From UHGV virus genome UHGV-0120697: a stretch of 28,017 nucleotides of DNA. The stretch is one strand, 5' to 3'. This document shows positions 7,074 to 19,550 of this stretch, piece by piece. The stretch's first letter is position 1, and the number at the start of each line of letters is the position of its first letter. Both the position numbers and the translations under genes were made by a program. This DNA comes from a virus. The notes below the pieces were generated by a model. The model saw only the letters and a program-made list of their open reading frames with translations. It ran no database searches and was not told where the DNA came from.

Positions 7074-9896
7074 ATGACGGCAGAGTACATCAGGGACTGG
7101 CAACAACCGCGCCACGCAGTAGGACGTGAAGGAACGGAGATCCCCGCACCTGAATCCGCACTTTCCTCCTGGCTGGATGCCTACCGGGCAGAGAACGAAC
7201 GCCGCCAGGAAATGGCTGATGCGGCGTTCTCCGCCACACCGCTGGGCAACCTGATTAATAAAAGCCTGGACGCACAGGAAAAACAGGACAAAACCATCAC
7301 ACTGGCAGGAGACGCCAGAAAACGGGCACGCGGCGCGGTGGATGAAGCCATGGCCTCGCTGCGCCTGCTGCCGTCCTATCTGCGCGATCCGCTTATTCGC
7401 CACCTCTCCTTCCTGCGCAAAAAACAGGAAGCCGATCGCCGGAAAGGCAAAAAGAGCTGGCAGGCGGAACGCTATGCACGCGGAACCCTGCGCAAAATAT
7501 TCGAACGTCTGGATCGCACTGACAGACGCTGGCTGACACCGGGTTATCGCTCCCTTGCCGGACGCGAACGCCTGGACGATTTGCTTTACCTGCCGCAGCT
7601 CAACAAACACCAGATACAGACGCTGGCCACCATGACGGCGGCGATGTTCAGCAGCACCTTCGAAAAACTCTGCGATGGCTTTGGCGCGACTGATGGCGAA
7701 CTGACCATGGATGTAACGCTGAAGGCGTATCAGATGCTGGCCCGCATGGCGTTACACCTGCACGCCATGCCTCCACATTATGACGCACTGACAACAGACA
7801 AAGACCGGAGGAACGAACCGGACACGGAGCTGCTGCCGGGCGCAATCCTCCGCCTGACCTGTGCGGAATGGTGGAAACGCAAACTGTGGCTGTTACGTTG
7901 CGAGTGGAGAGAAGAACAACTCCGCGCCGCCTGTCTGGTTTCCAGAAAAACATCGCCCTATCTGAGCCAGGACGCGTTAAGCGAGTTTCGCGCACAGCGC
8001 GAGAAAACACGCGATTTCCTGAAAAGTTTCATGCTGGAAAATGAAGACGGGTTCACGATTGATCTCGAGACGGTGTATTACGCGGGAGTAAGTAACCCGG
8101 TTCACCGTAAGGCAGAAATGATGGCCACCATGAAGGGACTGGAACTTCTGGCCGAAGCCCGTAGCGACAGAGCGGTGTTTCTGACCGTCACCTGCCCGTC
8201 AAAATACCACGCAACAACGGAGAACGGTCATCCGAACCCCAAATGGAACGGGGCCACCATGCGCGACTCCAGCGATTACCTGGTTAACACGTTTTTTGCG
8301 GCAGTCCGCAAAAAACTGAACCGCGACGGCCTGCGCTGGTATGGCATCCGCACGGTGGAGCCTCACCATGACGGCACCGTGCACTGGCATATGATGGTCT
8401 TTGCTCATCCGGAAGAAATCGACAGCATCGTGGCCATCACCCGCGATATTGCCATTCAGGAAGATCGTCACGAACTGGGCGATGATATTACTCCGCGCTT
8501 TAAGGCGGAGTATGTCGACGGCTCAAAAGGCACACCAACCAGCTATATCGCGACCTACATCGGAAAAAACCTGGACAGCCGCGCCGTAGATGGCATCGAC
8601 CCGAAAACGGGCAAGCCACGCGTTGACCACGAAACCGGAAAATCAATGGCCGAGAGCGTGGAGCGCGCCATTGGCTGGGCGCGTCTTCATCGGGTCCGCC
8701 AGTTCCAGTTCTTTGGCATCCCCTCCCGTCAGGTATGGCGTGAACTCCGCCGCCTTGCCAGCCAGATGGCACGCAACCCGGAAGGCCCGCAACGGCTGAA
8801 GGATGATGCAATGGATGCGGTACTCGCTGCCGCTGATGCCGGGTGTTTTGCCTCCTACATTGAAAAACAGGGTGGCGTGCTTGTTCCACGCAAGGACTAC
8901 CTGATTCGCACCGCCTACGACCTCGCAGATGAGCTGAACGATTACGGCGAACAGAGCGTACAGATTTACGGGATCTGGTCACCACTCATCGGGGAATCCT
9001 CCCGTGTGTGCACGCATCCGGATAACTGGAAGTTGGTAAGACGTAAACCAGAACCAGAAGACAACGCCCGCGAAAATGGTTTTGACCTTCAGGGCGGCCA
9101 TGCCGCCCCTTGGACTCGTGGCAATAACTGTCCCCGTGTACAGGAAACGGACAACAACGGGACAGAACAGCCGGAAGAACGGCCAGCACCGTGGCCGCAG
9201 CTTCCTGACGGCGTTGACGTGAACGAATGGATGCGCTCACTGAAACGGCACGAACGCCGGGCGCTGATGCGTTCGCTTCGTGACAAACAGGCAAAAAACA
9301 GCAGTGATGAAATGCAGAGCTGGACACAGAGCCGCAAACAGCAGCGGCCTTTGCCTGATAACCACGAATTACTCGCTAAAGAATGGCGGGAATCTGCCGA
9401 ATCTCTCGGCCTGCATATCGGTGAACAGCAGATGCAGCACCTGTTACGGGGCGGCAGTCTGTACGTTGACGGCAGCATCATTGCACCGCAGGGATTTGAA
9501 ATTGTACGCAAACCGGATACCCGACCGGACAGCCGGATCACGCAGCTCTGGCAGCGCCTGAGCCGTAACCACGGCGTAAGCAGTACGGAGATCCGCCATA
9601 ACCCGGTCGCCAGCTATCTGGAACAGCTGAGGGCATCAGACCCCGAAGCCGCCGCACGCCTGGCATCCACACTTCAGCAAGACCAGAACACCATGAAAAC
9701 ACCCGTTACCGTGCTTTCTGACATGCTGCGCGCCATCCGCGACGCAGAGCACGCACAGAGAATCAGTGAAACCACTGAACGCGCCCGCCGCAAAGCAGAC
9801 CTGCTGCGGGGTGGCCTGACCAGTGGAAACAAAAAACAGACAGAAACGGGATTCACAAATCCCGTAAATGAGCAAAAAACGCGCCGCGATATATGA
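7074..9896 (+). CDS. A: Rolling-circle replication initiator, gpA family (HUH endonuclease)
   Basis: HUH motif (TVHWHMMVFAH) and paired active-site tyrosines (TSYIATYIGKN); position after the early operon as in P2. 940 aa, longer than P2 gpA (about 760 aa), with a C-terminal extension. Confidence 0.9.
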   Translation: MTAEYIRDWQQPRHAVGREGTEIPAPESALSSWLDAYRAENERRQEMADAAFSATPLGNLINKSLDAQEKQDKTITLAGDARKRARGAVDEAMASLRLLPSYLRDPLIRHLSFLRKKQEADRRKGKKSWQAERYARGTLRKIFERLDRTDRRWLTPGYRSLAGRERLDDLLYLPQLNKHQIQTLATMTAAMFSSTFEKLCDGFGATDGELTMDVTLKAYQMLARMALHLHAMPPHYDALTTDKDRRNEPDTELLPGAILRLTCAEWWKRKLWLLRCEWREEQLRAACLVSRKTSPYLSQDALSEFRAQREKTRDFLKSFMLENEDGFTIDLETVYYAGVSNPVHRKAEMMATMKGLELLAEARSDRAVFLTVTCPSKYHATTENGHPNPKWNGATMRDSSDYLVNTFFAAVRKKLNRDGLRWYGIRTVEPHHDGTVHWHMMVFAHPEEIDSIVAITRDIAIQEDRHELGDDITPRFKAEYVDGSKGTPTSYIATYIGKNLDSRAVDGIDPKTGKPRVDHETGKSMAESVERAIGWARLHRVRQFQFFGIPSRQVWRELRRLASQMARNPEGPQRLKDDAMDAVLAAADAGCFASYIEKQGGVLVPRKDYLIRTAYDLADELNDYGEQSVQIYGIWSPLIGESSRVCTHPDNWKLVRRKPEPEDNARENGFDLQGGHAAPWTRGNNCPRVQETDNNGTEQPEERPAPWPQLPDGVDVNEWMRSLKRHERRALMRSLRDKQAKNSSDEMQSWTQSRKQQRPLPDNHELLAKEWRESAESLGLHIGEQQMQHLLRGGSLYVDGSIIAPQGFEIVRKPDTRPDSRITQLWQRLSRNHGVSSTEIRHNPVASYLEQLRASDPEAAARLASTLQQDQNTMKTPVTVLSDMLRAIRDAEHAQRISETTERARRKADLLRGGLTSGNKKQTETGFTNPVNEQKTRRDI
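9846..9865. promoter_or_regulatory. 20-bp palindrome ACGGGATT-CACA-AATCCCGT (copy 1, inside the 3' end of A)
   Basis: Perfect 8-bp inverted arms; an identical-arm copy lies 73 bp downstream. Confidence 0.5.
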
Positions 9897-9918
9897 AGCG
9901 CGCATAAAACAGGCAAAA

Positions 9919-9938
9919 ACGGGATTTCAGAATCCCGT
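9919..9938. promoter_or_regulatory. 20-bp palindrome ACGGGATT-TCAG-AATCCCGT (copy 2, 35 bp upstream of the parM-like start)
   Basis: Same arms as copy 1; both copies preceded by AAAACAG and followed by AAA(T/C)GA; positioned as an operator or centromere-like site. Confidence 0.5.
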
Positions 9939-9972
9939 AAACGATTAATTAATCAACATAAGGAAAAGCGAC

Positions 9973-10932
9973 ATGAAAATTTGTATCGATGACGGCTCCA
10001 CCAACATCAAGCTGGCATGGACTGAGAACGGCGAACGCCGCAACGCCATCAGCCCGAACAGCTTCAAGTCGGAATGGTCTGCGCCGTTCGGTGGCACGCA
10101 GCCCGCGAACTACATGCTTGATGGCGTGCGCTATGGTTTTGATCCGGTCAGCGATCGCTTTGTCCAGACGACTGACACGCAATACCAGTACAGCGATGTG
10201 AATGTCATTGCCATTCATCACGCGCTGGTCAAATCAGGCATCACGCCACAGGAGGTGGATGTGGTTGTCACCCTGCCACTGAGCGAGTATTTCGACACAA
10301 ACGCACAGCCGGACATAGCCAACATCAACCGCAAAAAAGCGAACGTTATGCGCCCGGTGGAGTACCAGAACGGCGAAGCATTCACTATCCGTAACGTACG
10401 GGTTATGCCTGAATCCATTCCGGCTGGCTTTAAGGCACTGGCTGACATGAGTCCGTTTGAATCCCTGCTGATTGTGGATTTAGGCGGAACCACGCTGGAT
10501 GTGGCAAAGGTTCAGGGACAACTGGCAGGTATCAGCCAGGTGTTTTGCGATCCACACGTAGGCGTTTCCCTGATGGCCGATGCCGTACTGTCGGTGATGG
10601 CCACTAACGGTATGCGTACCAGTCACCACATCGCCAATACCATTATCGAACATCGCCATGATGAAGCCTGGCTGCGCCAGCACATCCACAATGACGCGCA
10701 TTACGCCAGCCTGATGGCGGTTATTCGTGAAAAGGAAGAAACACTGAAACAACGCGTGATCCGCGCGCTGGCGGGTTTTTCGGGTTACGGGCGGGTGATG
10801 GTTGTCGGTGGCGGGGCAGAGATTGTGGCACCCGCTATCCGCGAAGCCTGCGGAGTTAATGCGACTTTCATCGCGGACGGGGTGCCACAGTTTGCTCTGG
10901 TTAATGGGCTGTACGCAATGGGCAAGGAGTAA
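9973..10932 (+). CDS. parM: Actin-like segregation ATPase, ParM/StbA family
   Basis: Actin-fold motifs: phosphate-1 (IDDGSTNIKLAW), phosphate-2 (VDLGGTTLD), adenosine (VVGGGAEIVAP). N-terminus closely resembles plasmid R1 ParM as recalled from memory (not searched). Confidence 0.7.
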   Translation: MKICIDDGSTNIKLAWTENGERRNAISPNSFKSEWSAPFGGTQPANYMLDGVRYGFDPVSDRFVQTTDTQYQYSDVNVIAIHHALVKSGITPQEVDVVVTLPLSEYFDTNAQPDIANINRKKANVMRPVEYQNGEAFTIRNVRVMPESIPAGFKALADMSPFESLLIVDLGGTTLDVAKVQGQLAGISQVFCDPHVGVSLMADAVLSVMATNGMRTSHHIANTIIEHRHDEAWLRQHIHNDAHYASLMAVIREKEETLKQRVIRALAGFSGYGRVMVVGGGAEIVAPAIREACGVNATFIADGVPQFALVNGLYAMGKE

Positions 10933-10936
10933 ACCA

Positions 10937-11248
10937 ATGACGACACCAACCAGACGGATAAGTTTCTATCTGAAGCCCGCCGCCGTCAAGAACGAAGGCG
11001 AAGCATGCGCCTGGCTGGACAGCCTTACACCAGAAGCCCGCAAAAGTGGTCAACGCGTGGCTTTTCTGGCCGGGCTGGCACTACTGAAAATGAATCCGGC
11101 AGAGGCTTACCGACTGGCTGCATGGGCTGATGATGAGGCGTTATCAATGACACAAACCAGGACAGAACGCCCCGCGTCACAGCCAGTATCAGCCGCACAG
11201 ATAACCAGTCAGATGGCCGGAAATATCCGGGCGTTATTTCCCGAATAA
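10937..11248 (+). CDS. parR: ParR-like small DNA-binding adaptor (ribbon-helix-helix type)
   Basis: Directly downstream of the ParM-like gene with an AAGGAG RBS; N-terminal RRISFYLKP...LDSLTPEAR...AFLAGLALLKMNP and C-terminal NIRALFPE resemble R1 ParR as recalled from memory. Confidence 0.55.
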   Translation: MTTPTRRISFYLKPAAVKNEGEACAWLDSLTPEARKSGQRVAFLAGLALLKMNPAEAYRLAAWADDEALSMTQTRTERPASQPVSAAQITSQMAGNIRALFPE

Positions 11249-11253
11249 CACAA

Positions 11254-11277
11254 CATCAGGGCGCATCCGCCCTGATG
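11254..11277 (+). other. Perfect 10-bp-stem hairpin (CATCAGGGCG-CATC-CGCCCTGATG) between the parR-like gene and the next operon
   Basis: Read directly; no U-tract, so a processing, stability or protein-binding role is as likely as termination. Confidence 0.45.
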
Positions 11278-11311
11278 ACTTTAACCCGGGAGCATAAACA
11301 AGGGGGACACA

Positions 11312-11644
11312 ATGCAACACATTGACAGAGAAAAAGCGCAGCGACTGATTGAGCGGATGGAAGCGCTGGCGAAAGAAGAAAATGTCAACATCCAAAAAAT
11401 AGCTGAATGTGGCCAGATAGTTCTTCGTCGTGAAAAAGACCTCAAACAACTGATGTCTGGCGAAACCAGCAAAACATGGACTTCAGGCGAGAAGACGGTT
11501 TATTGCAGCTTCTGCAATAAATCCCAGTACGAAGTCACAAAGGTGATTGCCGGACCGTCTGTTTACATCTGCAATGAGTGCGTGGATTTGTGCAATGAAA
11601 TTATCAGGAAAGAAGTGACAGACAAAAAGGAAAAAAACGCATGA
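11312..11644 (+). CDS. Small protein with a ClpX-type C4 zinc-binding domain (host ClpX N-domain mimic)
   Basis: C-terminal [38 protein letters not shown] has the C-x2-C-x18-C-x2-C spacing and is near-identical to the E. coli ClpX N-terminal zinc-binding domain as recalled from memory. No AAA+ module follows. Confidence 0.6.
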
Positions 11645-11955
11645 ACAGAAAACAGAAACAAGAGTTGAAATACTTCTTACGTAAAGAAATTGCCAGGCTT
11701 GAAGATGCAGAGTCACAATCATCAGAAATTCCGTTCGGAATGGATATCAACGACGCCCGTATGCTCCAGGCATACCGCATAGCTCAGGCTGCACTACAGG
11801 CAAAACCGTCAGATGGACTGGTTAGAGCAGTACATTTCTATGAACAGGTAAAGCGTGAGAATCCGCCAGTCGAAACCGGAGCATGGAAAGACGCTGTTGA
11901 CTGGGTGCTCAAAGAGGCTTGCCAGTCTGTAAACATTGGCATCAAAGGAGAGTGA
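11641..11955 (+). CDS. Hypothetical protein (operon gene 2)
   Basis: ATGA-coupled to the upstream gene; ends ...IGIKGE with the stop inside a 17-bp repeat. Confidence 0.5.
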
Positions 11956-11957
11956 GA

Positions 11958-12449
11958 ATGCAAATTTCACCGGTTACTCTTCGTGTTGCGAAGGCGTTTA
12001 TATCCAGACATCACCGACACAATAAACCCCCGGTGGGGCATAAATTCAGCATTGGTCTGAGAAATGATGCCGGAGAATTGATAGGTGTGGCGACAGCCGG
12101 TAGACCTGTTGCACGACATTTGGACGATGGATTAACGCTTGAAGTAAATCGCACATGTACCACAGGAGAACGCAACGCTAACAGCGCGCTTTATGGTGCT
12201 GTCTGGCGGGCAGCAAAGGCTATGGGTTATCAACGTTGTATTACGTACACCCAGGCAGATGAATCAGGAGCATCTCTCCGCGCAGCTGGTTTTGTTCGTG
12301 TGAAAGAGCTTCCTCCAAGAAAAAGCTGGGCGGAATCAAGCGTCGCCCTGCGGAGTAAACGCGATCCGGTCGGAAACGGTGGTGTTCCTCGTGTGCTCTG
12401 GGAAATCAGGAGAATGAGTACCACTGGCATTCGCATCAAAGGAGAGTGA
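11958..12449 (+). CDS. Hypothetical protein (operon gene 3), basic/His-rich N-terminus; possible acyltransferase-like fold
   Basis: ATG 2 nt after the upstream stop; ends ...GIRIKGE with the stop inside the second copy of the 17-bp repeat. Fold assignment is a weak impression only. Confidence 0.45.
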   Translation: MQISPVTLRVAKAFISRHHRHNKPPVGHKFSIGLRNDAGELIGVATAGRPVARHLDDGLTLEVNRTCTTGERNANSALYGAVWRAAKAMGYQRCITYTQADESGASLRAAGFVRVKELPPRKSWAESSVALRSKRDPVGNGGVPRVLWEIRRMSTTGIRIKGE

Positions 12450-12450
12450 T

Positions 12451-12714
12451 ATGGCAACTTTGACAAAAAAAGAACAAGCATGGTTGAGCGAATTACAGGA
12501 CGTTCTTGATCGCTGTCCATCACCGAAAAAAATTGGTTTTTACACCATTGGCGATAAAAGCATTTACCTGTATGACCTGCGCCGCATGGATGAAATCATG
12601 GAGGCTCTTGATAATCGTTCGTCAATGGATTGGTGTGTTGCTGTCCATGATATGAATGCAGGGTTTGATGAAAAGATTTTGTTCCCCTCATCAGTTGAAA
12701 GCACAGCAGGATAA
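12451..12714 (+). CDS. Hypothetical small protein (operon gene 4)
   Basis: ATG 1 nt after the upstream stop; followed by a strong terminator. Confidence 0.5.
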   Translation: MATLTKKEQAWLSELQDVLDRCPSPKKIGFYTIGDKSIYLYDLRRMDEIMEALDNRSSMDWCVAVHDMNAGFDEKILFPSSVESTAG

Positions 12715-12750
12715 GGACCCAGCAAATATACACAACCTATAAAACACTAA

Positions 12751-12774
12751 AGCGCCTCAGGGGCGCTTTTTGTT
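12751..12774 (+). terminator. Rho-independent terminator (AGCGCC-TCAGG-GGCGCT + TTTTTGTT)
   Basis: GC-rich stem-loop with a U-tract 36 nt after the last operon stop. Confidence 0.65.
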
Positions 12775-12801
12775 TGCACAAAAGTGCACAAATTTGCACA
12801 A
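12775..12801. repeat. Three direct TGCACAA repeats at exact 10-bp phasing (12775, 12785, 12795)
   Basis: Read directly; helical-repeat spacing suggests a protein-binding array (iteron- or centromere-like, or a packaging-protein site). Confidence 0.55.
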
Positions 12802-13172
12802 TTTTTTTGAACGACTTTTTACCCTTCCGGCCCGCATGGCGGCTGGATCCGTCAAGGATCCGTGCGTGCACAAAAAAACGCGCTTTTTCTGCGCGCAGGT
12901 GACGGGGGAACAGCCCGCGTTTCAGGGGGTAAATAGCATTCCCTGAACGATGTCGCAGAGACACAACAGAATGGCCATATTTCTCACGCTGAGCATGAAA
13001 AAGGCGTGAGGGCTTTTGATTTGATGGGGTGAAAGGTAAGGCCGTCAAAATCGCACTGAGGCAGCGAGAACATACAGTCAACGCGGTGGAATTGCGTAAG
13101 AGTCTGACCGTCGATGGTGGCGATAAACTGGAAGGCGTCGTGAAATTATCTGATTGATACAGGAGCTGGAGA

Positions 13173-13201
13173 GCCGGGGCATAAATTTTTTATGCCCCGG
13201 C
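13173..13201. other. Near-perfect 29-bp palindrome GCCGGGGCATAAA-TTT-TTTATGCCCCGGC
   Basis: 13-bp perfect inverted arms read directly in the non-coding stretch between the accessory operon and the orphan gene; candidate protein-binding or cos-associated site. Confidence 0.4.
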
Positions 13202-13300
13202 GAAGCAGCAGACAAGCGAAGCGCGTCAGCGATACGGCACCTTGCCGACCATACTTCATAAGTGCAAAATACGAGCAAAGAAATCAATGGAGGCTGTCTT

Positions 13301-13825
13301 ATGGTCATTAATTACAAGCAGTTAAGAGAAAAACGGGAGCAGGTAAAGGAGAGCTTTCGCCGCAATGAAGATCTGACCCCGCTTGTACGCCTTGCCCAGG
13401 GCATTGTTGATGCTTATGAAATCTCGCTGGAGCTGCCATCACAGACCTGGACAGATAGCGACGGTAATCGCCAGCATTACGTTTCATGCGGACTGGAAGC
13501 AGCCGAAGGATTTCGCAGAATGCCTTTATCCCAGATCCCTGCCGCTACCCCCAAAGCACGGGGCAGCAATGATGAGCGAAAACTGACTTTTAGTATTGAA
13601 ACGGTGGTTGACGACACACCTGGCGAAGTCGCGTTCGTGCACACGCCTGTTTCGATCGCAATGTATAACGATGAAATACAGGTTCGCGTTAATAATAATA
13701 TCGTGCCACTTAAAGAAGGTAATTCACCCTACACCACCGTTTGTGAAGCCATTCAATATTACGTTCTCTCTGAAATTGATAATCTCAAGCCTGACGGCAC
13801 CCAGAAAATGGTTCAACTCTGGTAA
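13301..13825 (+). CDS. Hypothetical protein (orphan gene next to the portal gene)
   Basis: ATG at 13301 preceded by GGAGG (track start 13262 is a GTG); ends at a bidirectional terminator; no recognised domain. Confidence 0.5.
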   Translation: MVINYKQLREKREQVKESFRRNEDLTPLVRLAQGIVDAYEISLELPSQTWTDSDGNRQHYVSCGLEAAEGFRRMPLSQIPAATPKARGSNDERKLTFSIETVVDDTPGEVAFVHTPVSIAMYNDEIQVRVNNNIVPLKEGNSPYTTVCEAIQYYVLSEIDNLKPDGTQKMVQLW

Positions 13826-13831
13826 AAAGGA

Positions 13832-13856
13832 CAGCCCCATCACGGGGCTGTTTTTT
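13832..13856. terminator. Bidirectional intrinsic terminator (CAGCCCC-ATCAC-GGGGCTG) shared by the orphan gene (+) and portal gene Q (-)
   Basis: Stem-loop with T6 on the plus strand and a T-rich tract on the minus strand; the Q stop codon lies in the loop. Confidence 0.55.
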
Positions 13857-14886
13857 CATCAAGAAGAGCATAAGAGTTAAAACGGATCACCTCTTCGCCA
13901 AGCCAGTCATTGATGTGCTTCATAGCCTCCATGACGGGCATCAGCTCGTTAATTGCGTAAACCCGCGCTGCCTTCTCCACATCGCCAAACGCACTTTTTT
14001 CGCCCGGCATCGCCCCCATCAGTTGCGGCGGAACGCGGTGCGCAGCCAGCACATCATCACGGGATGCCGCCTTAACATTCATGAATTCATCTTTTGCGGT
14101 GATCTGCTGGAACGGCAAAATTTGCACCCCCTCTTTGCCCCCGTTGGGCGCATGAATGAGCACGTTTTTAAACGCACCACCACCACGTGCCCCCTGTAGC
14201 GTTTCTTTCAGGGAGTCCATGCTTTCGCGGTTTACCTGCGCTGCACCGATGTAGATGATGCACCCGGCGTGGGATCCGTTGTCGTAGTACAGTTTTCTGA
14301 ACATGTCCGCCGAATGAGAAAGGCTGGCCGAGAGTAATGCGCCAAGATATTCCGGCATGCCGTAGATTTCCTGGTTAATATCCGGATTCATCAGGTGGCA
14401 CACTTTGCCAGGACGAAACTGAAACGCGTCCTTGCCATCCTGCACATACCACCATGATTCAAGATCGCTTCCGCGTCGCATGTATTTCGCCAGGGCGTGC
14501 CGTAATTTAAGCGGTTCGCCGAGCATATTGCTTCGAAGCTCAAGGAATGCGTTACCGAACACAAACCAGTCCAGCGCCAGCGCCGAGAAATCCTGCCGGG
14601 AAAGCAGCGGGTGCGGGATGTAGCAACCGAGTAATACATTGCGCTTAAAGTAAAGCGCAGACTGATGCCAGGACGTTTGCCGGGCTGCTCTTGCCAGACC
14701 GTACCAGTCCACCGGGGTTTCATACCACCGCCCGTTATCAGCACAGTACATATTGTCCAGCAGGTCATGCCCGGTCAGGCGATAAGGACCATCAAATGTG
14801 AATGCACTGAGCGATGATTCTTTCCTGAGCGCATCAGCGAGATCAATGCGTGAACTCATGCGCACTTTTTTATTTTTTCTGCTCAT
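13840..14886 (-). CDS. Q: Portal protein, P2 gpQ-like
   Basis: About 348 aa, size and position match P2 gpQ; downstream of and overlapping the terminase gene on the same strand. Confidence 0.9.
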   Translation of the reverse strand: MSRKNKKVRMSSRIDLADALRKESSLSAFTFDGPYRLTGHDLLDNMYCADNGRWYETPVDWYGLARAARQTSWHQSALYFKRNVLLGCYIPHPLLSRQDFSALALDWFVFGNAFLELRSNMLGEPLKLRHALAKYMRRGSDLESWWYVQDGKDAFQFRPGKVCHLMNPDINQEIYGMPEYLGALLSASLSHSADMFRKLYYDNGSHAGCIIYIGAAQVNRESMDSLKETLQGARGGGAFKNVLIHAPNGGKEGVQILPFQQITAKDEFMNVKAASRDDVLAAHRVPPQLMGAMPGEKSAFGDVEKAARVYAINELMPVMEAMKHINDWLGEEVIRFNSYALLDEKTAP

Positions 14887-16637
14887 CAGAACTCCATAAC
14901 TGTGAAACGCTCGTTTTCTCCTTCGCCGCCAATTGGTTCGTTAATGACAGCAAGCATGGTTGCCCACGCAAGGTCGCCGTGGCTGATCCCCCTCGCGCGG
15001 TCCGTTTCGTAAGTGATAAAGCCGCCCGGTGTTTTCACCTTACGCACGGCGTTAAAGGCTGCGACCAGCTCGCGTTCGGCGCGATCGTATTCCCACCGCC
15101 CGGCACGCATTATTTGCAGCATTTTCAGTACCAGCGACCGTTTTGATGACAGCGTGAAGGTGTACGGAATAGCAGCAGGGAAAAACCGTTTCACTATCTG
15201 ATAAACAGCCTCCCCGTTCCCGCCCGTCACATCAATGCCGATGTGTTCCACGTTGTAGCGACACGTGAACTCTTCAATGACTCTGGCCTGTTCTTCAAAC
15301 TCCAGCCCCTGAACGCGTCGCGTCTCCACCGTTCGAAAACGGCCACCAGGAACAGACGGAGGAACCACCACGGACACAGCGCCGCTGTCGCCGTTGCCAC
15401 TGCTGCCGTTTGCGTCATACCCAATCCATACCGGACGATTCCCCATCGGGCGGGGAGCAAAAGGTTTCCAGTCTTTCCAGTCGTCGTATCCGTCAACACC
15501 ACAGCCAATCAGGATATTCAGGTTAAATGCCGATTCCCCTTCGCGGACAAACTCACACATATAGAGATTGAGGAACTCGTCTTCGGTGTTTTCATCACGA
15601 ATTTCATCAATATCGGTGTGTTTCCAGCCGTGATTAACCACATCTTCCAGCGTGACAATTTGCCGCCACGTCCGGTCAGGGCAGATAAGCCCGTTATGCA
15701 GCGTTTTCCAGTCCACAGAAAAACGCTGGCGTTTATGCGTGGCCTTTTTCTCGTTCCAGCGGTCGCCGTTCCAGTAGGCGTATGCCTCGTGCGTTTCGGT
15801 GGATGGCGTGGAGAAGTAGGTGCGCCGCAGTCCGCTGAGGGTTGCCATAGCGCCAGCCACCTTGCGCAGTTCAGCAAAGCGACTGACCCAGAAAAATTCA
15901 TCAAAATAAAAATTGCCCGTATAGGACTGCGCCGACGCAGCAGAAGTGCCGAGAAAATGCAGCTCTGCGCCGTTGGAGAGGATGATTTTATCGCCCCCTT
16001 TCAGCTCCACATCAACTTCAGCCGCGGCCTTCTGAATAATGCTTTTAAACTGGAACGCCTGACGACGCGACGCAGACAAAAAAATCTGGTTACGCTGGTA
16101 AGGTTGCGCCACATCGTCACGCAGCGCCATCAGCAGTGCTTCCTGTGCAAAATACCAGGTCGCGCCAATCTGTCGGGATTTCAGGATCATCCTGTTACGT
16201 ATCCCGGCTTCCCTGCAAAGGGTCAGGGAGTCAAACCAGCCCCGCTGATGCCACTCCAGCCTGCTGATGATTTTTTCCCGCAGTGCGGCAATCTGTTCCG
16301 GCGTGAAATGATTTTTGAGTTTTTTCGCCCGGCCTTTCTTTCCTGTGGCCGTCGCATCCGGCTGGCCATCATGCAGTTTTTTAAGCTGCCGGGTCAGCAG
16401 GTCTATTTCCTTAAAGTCACCGCCTGTTTTATTCTGTTTTTCAGTAAGCTGGATGAGGCGCGCATCGATGGACTGCGTGACACGCTGCACGGGTGGCGTT
16501 TCATCCCACTGGTCGCGTTTTTTCCACGCATAAATCGTGTTCGGGTTTATTCCCATCAGACGTGATATTTCTGCGGGCGGATAACCCTGCCAGTAAAGTT
16601 GCCGCGCACGCTGGCGCACAAAAGCGTCCTGAATCAT
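14886..16637 (-). CDS. P: Terminase large (ATPase) subunit, P2 gpP-like
   Basis: 583 aa; N-terminal HTH-like segment; divergent from the O-N-M-L capsid genes as in P2. Confidence 0.9.
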   Translation of the reverse strand: MIQDAFVRQRARQLYWQGYPPAEISRLMGINPNTIYAWKKRDQWDETPPVQRVTQSIDARLIQLTEKQNKTGGDFKEIDLLTRQLKKLHDGQPDATATGKKGRAKKLKNHFTPEQIAALREKIISRLEWHQRGWFDSLTLCREAGIRNRMILKSRQIGATWYFAQEALLMALRDDVAQPYQRNQIFLSASRRQAFQFKSIIQKAAAEVDVELKGGDKIILSNGAELHFLGTSAASAQSYTGNFYFDEFFWVSRFAELRKVAGAMATLSGLRRTYFSTPSTETHEAYAYWNGDRWNEKKATHKRQRFSVDWKTLHNGLICPDRTWRQIVTLEDVVNHGWKHTDIDEIRDENTEDEFLNLYMCEFVREGESAFNLNILIGCGVDGYDDWKDWKPFAPRPMGNRPVWIGYDANGSSGNGDSGAVSVVVPPSVPGGRFRTVETRRVQGLEFEEQARVIEEFTCRYNVEHIGIDVTGGNGEAVYQIVKRFFPAAIPYTFTLSSKRSLVLKMLQIMRAGRWEYDRAERELVAAFNAVRKVKTPGGFITYETDRARGISHGDLAWATMLAVINEPIGGEGENERFTVMEF

Positions 16638-18749: not shown

Positions 18750-19550
18750 ATGATTACTCCTGCACAACAACACTGGCTGAACGTGATGGCACAGCGCGCA
18801 GGCCGGGCGAATGAAGGTGTGGACCACGCCGCGCGTACCGCGCATGAAGAGGTGCTGTATCGTCTGCGTCTGGCACAGGCCAGGCTAAAGGGCGTACAGG
18901 CCAGAAGCGCGAAAGCCGCCATCAAAAAAGAGTTGTTGCCGGATTTTTCCGGCTGGATTGAGGGAACGCTGGAAGCTGACGGCGGGCAGCAGGATGAAGT
19001 GATTGCCACGCTGATGGTGTGGGCGATTGACTGCGGCGATCTTCCGCTGGCGCTGCGTATTGGTGCATATGTGGTCCGTCACAACCTCATCATGCCGGAT
19101 AACTTTGGCCGTACTGCTGCCACGGTACTGACCGAAGAAATCTGCAACCCGGTACTGACGCAGGCCGGGACGGATGCCGACGCGGATTTATCCGCCTTTA
19201 TCGAACCACTGGACACACTTTGGGAAATTGTCGCCAACCAGGACATGCCGGACGAAGTGCGCGCCAAATTATGCAAGGCGTGTGCCTTTGCCCGTCGTGG
19301 CCTGACCGATGCAGACAACATGGCCTCATCACTGAAGCTGCTGCGCGAAGCGATGCACCTGAACCCGAACGCAGGTGTGAAACGCGAGATTGCAACCCTT
19401 TCCCGCGCCCTGAAAAAAGCCGATTCCGCAGCCGCACCAGAAGACGCCAGCGCACAGCAGACGCAGGACGAAAGCAGCAAAAGTAAAAAGACAACGCAGA
19501 AGCCTGCAACACGAAAAATCACCGCGTCGCAGAAGGCGAAGCGCGGTTAA
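18750..19550 (+). CDS. M: Terminase small/endonuclease subunit, P2 gpM-like
   Basis: 266 aa; order O-N-M; conserved MPDEVRAKL segment; basic Lys/Arg-rich C-terminus. Confidence 0.85.
   Translation: MITPAQQHWLNVMAQRAGRANEGVDHAARTAHEEVLYRLRLAQARLKGVQARSAKAAIKKELLPDFSGWIEGTLEADGGQQDEVIATLMVWAIDCGDLPLALRIGAYVVRHNLIMPDNFGRTAATVLTEEICNPVLTQAGTDADADLSAFIEPLDTLWEIVANQDMPDEVRAKLCKACAFARRGLTDADNMASSLKLLREAMHLNPNAGVKREIATLSRALKKADSAAAPEDASAQQTQDESSKSKKTTQKPATRKITASQKAKRG

Follow-up and report, generated by a model that had tools for sequence, protein, structure and literature searches.

Phased TGCACAA repeats beside the predicted cohesive-end site of a P88-like phage as a likely recognition part of the P2-family cos region

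Results

The window, by which we mean the whole stretch of 28,017 nucleotides analysed here (virus genome UHGV-0120697), belongs to a P88-like (Xuanwuvirus, Peduoviridae) phage or prophage of the P2 family, and Escherichia phage PhiR44_2 is 99.9% identical to it across the repeat region that is the subject of this work. The repeats fall within the interval between gpA and Q, which in P2-like phages is a cargo hotspot adjacent to cos (Rousset et al. 2022, PMC9122126). The genes that frame this interval and those of the cognate gpP/gpM terminase, encoded in the same genome and identified with Pfam, are as follows.

7074-9896: GpA (Pfam)
9973-10932: ParM (Pfam)
10937-11248: ParR/StbB-like protein (Pfam)
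13840-14886, minus strand: portal gene Q
14886-16637, minus strand: gpP, large terminase (Pfam Terminase_5, HTH_23, Terminase_6N and Terminase_6C; N-terminal HTH at residues 6-63)
18750-19550, plus strand: gpM, small terminase subunit (Pfam Phage_term_smal, E=1e-36)

Downstream of ParMR the cargo extends over 11312-12714, and encodes a zinc-finger protein of the ClpX type (11312-11644) besides a weak Mom-like match below threshold (11958-12449). At the end of this region, about 300 bp (12425-12718) match the Ead/Ea22 region of lambdoid and P1/P7-like phages with 95-97% identity, a likeness in sequence that points to a recent exchange between phage families. The cargo operon runs rightward and is closed by an intrinsic terminator, behind which the repeats and the elements associated with them are arranged in the following order.

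12749-12774, plus strand: intrinsic terminator detected by a terminator scan (hairpin 12749-12769 and T-run), closing the rightward cargo operon
12775-12781, plus strand: repeat copy 1, TGCACAA, at -123 from the predicted cosN; outer edge of the conserved block
12785-12791, plus strand: repeat copy 2, G-TGCACAA, at -113 from the predicted cosN; high information content
12795-12801, plus strand: repeat copy 3, T-TGCACAA-T, at -103 from the predicted cosN; best conserved copy
12802-12808, plus strand: T7 tract after copy 3; moderate conservation
12809-12866, plus strand: spacer of fixed length and variable sequence; low information content
12867-12878, plus strand: repeat copy 4, TGCACAA with an A-run, at -31 from the predicted cosN; counterpart of TGCATTAAAA at -29 in P2, 186 and P4
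12878-12896, no strand assigned: GC-rich hairpin CGCGC-N7-GCGCG, abutting the predicted cosN; counterpart of CCGCCC-N6-GCGGGCGG in P2 and P4
12898-12916, plus strand: predicted cosN, 19-nt cohesive end GGTGACGGGGGAACAGCCC, with a 13/19 match to P2 cosL/cosR

The first three copies of TGCACAA, all on the plus strand, follow each other at a spacing of exactly 10 bp. The sequence-only reading of this DNA had described them as such, as lying in an AT-rich setting that runs into a T7 tract and as standing directly after a terminator, and each of these points holds, A+T content reaching 70% in the 46 bp from 12775 against 47% window-wide, the T7 tract adjoining copy 3, and the terminator hairpin ending at 12769. 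A fourth copy, unmentioned in that reading, starts 72 bp to the right of copy 3 (12867-12873) and is part of the same system as the triplet. The 7-mer as such is not enriched in the window (10 occurrences observed against 7.5 expected). The triplet, on the other hand, is the sole triple of any 7-mer with a spacing of 9-12 bp in the 28 kb. First-order Markov simulations, 300 in number, yielded neither a 7-mer nor a 6-mer triple spaced by 10 bp, which places the phased triple far outside chance expectation.

Between the copies there are A4 and A3T3 tracts which, together with the T7 tract, form a series of A/T tracts phased at about 10-11 bp, which may give the DNA an intrinsic bend at the triplet. 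A promoter scan revealed no sigma-70 promoter-like site within 12775-12810, and an Rfam search of 9800-14000 returned no RNA family. Features of other kinds were seen in the spacer. An imperfect palindrome (GCCCGCATGGCGGC) occupies its middle (12830-12843), the same mid-spacer place in which CGCCAG-N2-4-CTGGCG is found in many lineages (186, P4-likes, Klebsiella types), and direct repeats of GGATCCGT at 12845-12852 and 12856-12863, 11 bp apart, are specific to the P88 lineage.

A search with the P2/186 cos 19-mer, both exact and at three mismatches, gave no match, the homologue in the window carrying six. This homologue was revealed by an intergenic alignment with Enterobacter phage phiT5282H and two Klebsiella phages, in which the segment 12898-12916 (GGTGACGGGGGAACAGCCC) proved identical at 13 of 19 positions to the annotated P2 cohesive end (GGCGAGGCGGGGAAAGCAC), while the form found in Klebsiella phages (GGCGAGGCGGGGGAGCAAG) bridges the two. 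As expected for a P2-family cos, the segment is a G-rich 19-mer located between the gpA-side cargo and portal gene Q; a GC hairpin directly precedes it, as in P2 and P4, and its conservation is near maximal. We predict that 12898-12916 is the cosN of the window, with exact cut positions inferred from this homology. The expectation that the repeats lie beside the cos region is thereby supported, the predicted cosN being situated about 100 bp to their right.

Records or contigs with ends at 12898-12916 were sought and none was found. The only linear record of a close relative (LR595891.1) opens at window position 12820, which corresponds to -78 from the predicted cosN, and this start may be an arbitrary assembly break or a hint of ends differing from the prediction. 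Position 12820 was rejected as a cut site, given that it belongs to a poorly conserved segment with no P2 counterpart. Another candidate, 13190-13225 (GGCGAAGCAGCAGACAAGC...), had been considered on the basis of an element of 66-75 bp common to another P2-like lineage, where it stands beside ogr/Q; it was rejected as cos, since it adjoins the portal stop codon and does not share the P2 architecture. The element to which this candidate belongs (13161-13225) consists of a hairpin (13164-13192) followed by GGCGAAGCAGCAGACAAGCGAAGCGCGTCAG, with one compensatory change in the stem, and in the other P2-like lineage it makes up nearly all of the non-coding sequence separating the cargo from ogr/Q. 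Rather than cos, it probably represents the terminator region of the P/Q operon.

The DNA between cosN and the portal gene holds two more features. A conserved ORF of 42 amino acids with a GTG start (13029-13157), hypothetical in several relatives, lies between cosN and the 13164-13192 hairpin, and its changes among relatives include non-synonymous substitutions. An insertion of about 600 bp (13234-13840), absent in P88, separates the cos block from the portal stop codon and contains an ORF of 174 amino acids (13301-13825) with no Pfam match and a terminator of its own (13831-13851); it makes the Q side of cos a second hotspot for cargo.

For comparison with sites whose cohesive ends are annotated from experiment, the cos junctions of P2, 186 and P4 were built by circularising the reference records, and regions of 250 bp were compared. 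Each of the four regions (window, P2, P4 and 186) contains exactly four TGCAY motifs. Their offsets from cosN are -123/-113/-103/-31 in the window, -123/-111/-101/-29 in P2, and -124/-111/-101/-29 in both P4 and 186. The elements thus occur in the same order and at the same distances (three TGCAY, a further TGCAY with an A-tract, a GC hairpin and a 19-nt G-rich cosN), and in the same site between the cargo hotspot and portal gene Q. The window differs from P2, 186 and P4 in its motif, TGCAC(AA) instead of TGCAT, in the spacing between copies 1 and 2 (10 bp against 12-13 bp), in six of the 19 positions of cosN relative to P2, and in the distance from cosN to Q, which is at least about 340 bp in the lineage of the window against about 190 bp in the P2 type, the window adding the 600-bp insertion. 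The description of the array as helically phased stands for copies 2 and 3, whose 10-bp step is invariant, and fails as a general rule for copies 1 and 2.

The comparison of P2 with P4 is informative in its own right, as this satellite has only cos in common with P2 (PMC9122126). Identity between the two amounts to 13/16 over copies 2-3, 10/11 over copy 4 with its A-tract and 17/19 over the hairpin, whereas the spacer is unrelated in sequence (12/66 identical) and equal in length, at 66 bp. A packaging site was one of the functions that the sequence-only reading had offered for the repeats, and it is the one that this layout upholds, since the same four motifs flank the mapped cos of P2, 186 and P4.

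Conservation among relatives was examined at several depths. All three repeats were kept in eight related phage records, in agreement with the conservation that the earlier reading had proposed to check, whereas leftward of them the records hold unrelated cargo, homology among these relatives setting in with the first base of copy 1. Of 5,426 complete E. coli genomes, 1,142 carry the block, and among the matches listed most alignments begin at query position 36, which is window position 12775. At least 71 of 76 further viral contigs with the same cosN retain the four motifs at identical offsets, with at least 45 different 12-mers adjoining copy 1. The array is also kept at larger distances: P2-like phages whose portal identity ranges from 100% to about 50% have an NGCAYAA triplet, the proximal copy and cosN.

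A profile of 47 de-replicated regions shows next to no information content as far as 12774; it climbs almost to its maximum over the repeats, where copy 3 exceeds copy 2 and copy 2 exceeds copy 1, takes a moderate value in the T-tract, falls to a low level in the spacer, and returns almost to the maximum at copy 4 and cosN. In copy 1 the TGCA core is conserved and the remaining letters are weaker. The terminator at 12749-12774 accordingly lies outside the conserved block and is specific to the cargo, the left flank being unrelated among relatives. Cargo exchange thus never enters the block, whose outer limit is copy 1, and, on these alignments, the triplet is the outermost conserved part of the cos signal.

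The geometry of the block is likewise constrained. Among 95 distinct cos regions, the distance between copies 2 and 3 is 10 bp in 92 of 92, that between copies 3 and 4 is 72 bp in 87 of 95, and that between copy 4 and cosN is 29 bp (60 regions), 30 bp (3), 31 bp (30) or 38 bp (2). Because 72 bp correspond to about seven helical turns, the four sites would lie on roughly one face of the helix.

P4-like satellites follow the same plan. All four motifs occur in the 66 distinct cos regions of such satellites found in viral contigs, with three single exceptions, and in 34 Psu-encoding satellites from about 15 Enterobacterales genera, with divergent spacers. A TGCAC-type cos had been predicted for the satellites of Klebsiella and Enterobacter, hosts in which TGCAC-type P2-like phages do occur. 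All 34 Psu-encoding satellites were instead of the TGCAT type, and every sampled P4-like satellite encoding Psu combines a TGCAT-type array with a cosN of the P2/186 type. A TGCAC-type cos lacking an adjacent portal gene was also sought among the viral contigs with the same cosN and none was found; no satellite carrying the cos variant of the window was encountered. The uniform TGCAT type of the satellites has no bearing on whether the repeats serve packaging. P4-family satellites may, on this showing, be unable to exploit TGCAC-type phages at the level of packaging.

Discussion

The most likely explanation for these data is that the triplet and the fourth copy 72 bp downstream constitute a conserved recognition part of the P2-family cos (packaging) site, and we hold this reading with good, though not complete, confidence. 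The functional unit would span approximately 12775-12925 and comprise three in-phase TGCAY motifs, a spacer of fixed length, a TGCAY with an A-tract, a GC hairpin and the 19-nt cosN. In the mechanism that we propose, terminase would bind the four TGCAY sites on roughly one face of the helix through the N-terminal HTH of gpP, the small subunit gpM, or both; the phased A/T tracts and the fixed 72-bp spacer would allow the DNA to bend or wrap; and the bent complex would be placed on cosN, ready to make the staggered cut and to couple with the prohead. Cargo exchange would be confined to the outside of the block, and the hotspot would stop exactly at copy 1, since packaging is proposed to require the whole stretch that starts with copy 1 and ends just beyond cosN.

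The repeats could belong to cos and nevertheless be read by a host protein of the IHF, Fis or HU kind, or act simply as bent DNA with no terminase bound to them. The A/T tracts that separate and follow the repeats, in phase at about 10-11 bp, would suit such a role, as would the fixed length of the spacer, and there is a precedent in the cosB of lambda, which employs IHF and an intrinsic bend. The conserved letters, however, are those of the TGCAY cores and not those of the A/T tracts, and inspection by eye found nothing that matches the IHF, Fis, CRP or DnaA consensus well. Furthermore, the cores switch as a set, TGCAT or TGCAC, between lineages that share a host species, a behaviour that a phage-encoded reader fits better than a host one. 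We consider a host reader or pure bending unlikely. A slightly smaller probability is assigned to a conserved element that is merely a neighbour of cos, such as an operator or insulator of the cargo, or a recombination hotspot that generates the cargo junction. The junction does fall exactly at copy 1, the leftward old-tin transcript of P2 starts about 26-50 bp from the triplet, and cos ends have been speculated to promote cargo exchange (Rousset et al., PMC9122126). Yet the distance of the repeats to cosN is fixed although the flanking genes and their orientation differ wholly among P2, 186, P4 and the window, and the cargo hotspot of P4 starts at about +26, across cosN, where TGCAY repeats are absent. 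The empty promoter scan of 12775-12810 and the Rfam search without a match also speak against such an element.

The sequence-only reading had named partition centromeres and iterons next to packaging sites, and neither is sustained. A parC centromere, or an additional ParR-binding array of the adjacent cargo, was suggested by the ParM and ParR/StbB-like proteins encoded 1.5-2.8 kb leftward and by the short phased repeats that typify centromeres; indeed, parC of the plasmid R1 type (ParMRC) is likewise an array of short repeats phased at about 10-11 bp. parC, however, sits upstream of parM and overlaps its promoter, while the repeats of the window lie downstream of the whole cargo operon, about 1.5 kb from parR, with four genes and a terminator in between. 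They also occur where there is no ParMR at all, namely in the P2-like phiT5282H, Klebsiella phage 3LV2017 and CP052639, as well as in P2, 186, P4 and more than 100 satellites. Two palindromes of 20 bp (ACGGGATTnnnnAATCCCGT), at 9846-9865 within the 3' end of gpA and at 9919-9938 just upstream of parM, 73 bp apart, are conserved in every ParMR-bearing relative and are probably the real parC/ParR operator of the phage-borne ParMR. They occupy the canonical parC position, and a centromere role for the TGCACAA array is very improbable. Least credible of all, with hardly any weight, is a reading of the repeats as replication iterons, or else as a product of chance or of low complexity in AT-rich DNA. 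Apart from the AT-rich surroundings, which would be in keeping with either, chance is contradicted by the simulations, in which no such triple arose, and by the deep conservation of the repeats. Replication in the P2 family begins with a nick that GpA makes at an origin within gene A, and the window encodes GpA (7074-9896); moreover, the array follows cosN rather than a replication gene, and it is found in P4, whose replication system is unrelated.

Returning to recognition by terminase, the triplet would be a distal terminase-recognition element whose candidate readers are the HTH of gpP and gpM. The N-terminal HTH of gpP is nearly invariant across the TGCAC-type lineages despite three different cosN sequences. 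One position of its recognition helix is Tyr in every TGCAC-type lineage, including one that is 51% identical in the HTH domain, and Gln or His in TGCAT-type lineages. Since this correlation is confounded by phylogeny, we take it as a lead rather than a result. The gpP HTH and gpM are both about 40% identical to their P2 versions, so that comparing their divergence does not discriminate between the two readers, and a PDB sequence search gave no solved homologue for gpM or for the gpP HTH. A divergent P2-like lineage (L175, IMGVR_UViG_2576861238_000003) was observed to have a mixed array (GCATA, TGCAT and TGCAC) with a TGCAT proximal copy; its gpP helix carries Tyr, which makes it an exception to the association of Tyr with TGCAC and of Gln/His with TGCAT. 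We advance only tentatively, and regard as rather doubtful, the more specific proposal that the four TGCAY motifs form a code read by the gpP HTH and that the TGCAC type is an escape from P4-family piracy at cos.

The cosB of lambda, composed of the gpNu1 sites R1-R3 and an IHF site, offers a parallel in that lambda cosB/cosQ also places several short repeats beside, yet apart from, the nicking site cosN, with bending probably involved. There is no sequence similarity between the two systems. The R sites of lambda are found on the terminase-gene (first-packaged) side of cosN, whereas the P2-family repeats stand opposite the P/Q genes, on the cargo side and not on that of a lambda-type cosB; being at the right end of the mature DNA, they are positionally nearer to lambda cosQ. 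They may serve the initiation of packaging, as cosB does, or its termination, as cosQ does. The reader in lambda is a winged HTH of the small subunit, while in the window it is the large subunit that carries an HTH.

As quoted in the part of PMC5694545 that cites Ziermann & Calendar 1990, the 'core' of the P2-family cos measures 55 bp. The distal triplet lies outside a core of that size. The functional cos defined in the 1990 work is reportedly larger than 55 bp. No description of the TGCAT/TGCAC motifs, or of the functional extent of P2 cos, was found in the searchable literature, a body that does not include Ziermann & Calendar 1990. We regard the site in the window, with its TGCAC motifs, 10/10 spacing and divergent cosN, as a variant that one lineage has of a type already known, and not as a site of a new kind.

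Conclusions

The analysis locates and delimits the likely packaging signal in a family of prophages that is very common in E. coli. It also provides a rule for unannotated P2-like prophages and P4-like satellites (three TGCAY, 72 bp, TGCAY, about 30 bp, cosN), which at the same time marks the boundary of the cargo hotspot. The results point to a functional P2/P4 cos that exceeds the usually quoted 55-bp core, which is relevant to the design of P2/P4 cosmid delivery vectors. The array is a testable candidate for DNA recognition by the P2-family terminase and for packaging compatibility between helper and satellite. If the code read by gpP were true, a single helix position would set the type, Tyr specifying TGCAC and Gln/His TGCAT; the TGCAT and TGCAC types would be packaging-compatibility groups, and the P4 family would be unable to mimic the packaging signal of TGCAC-type phages such as that of the window.
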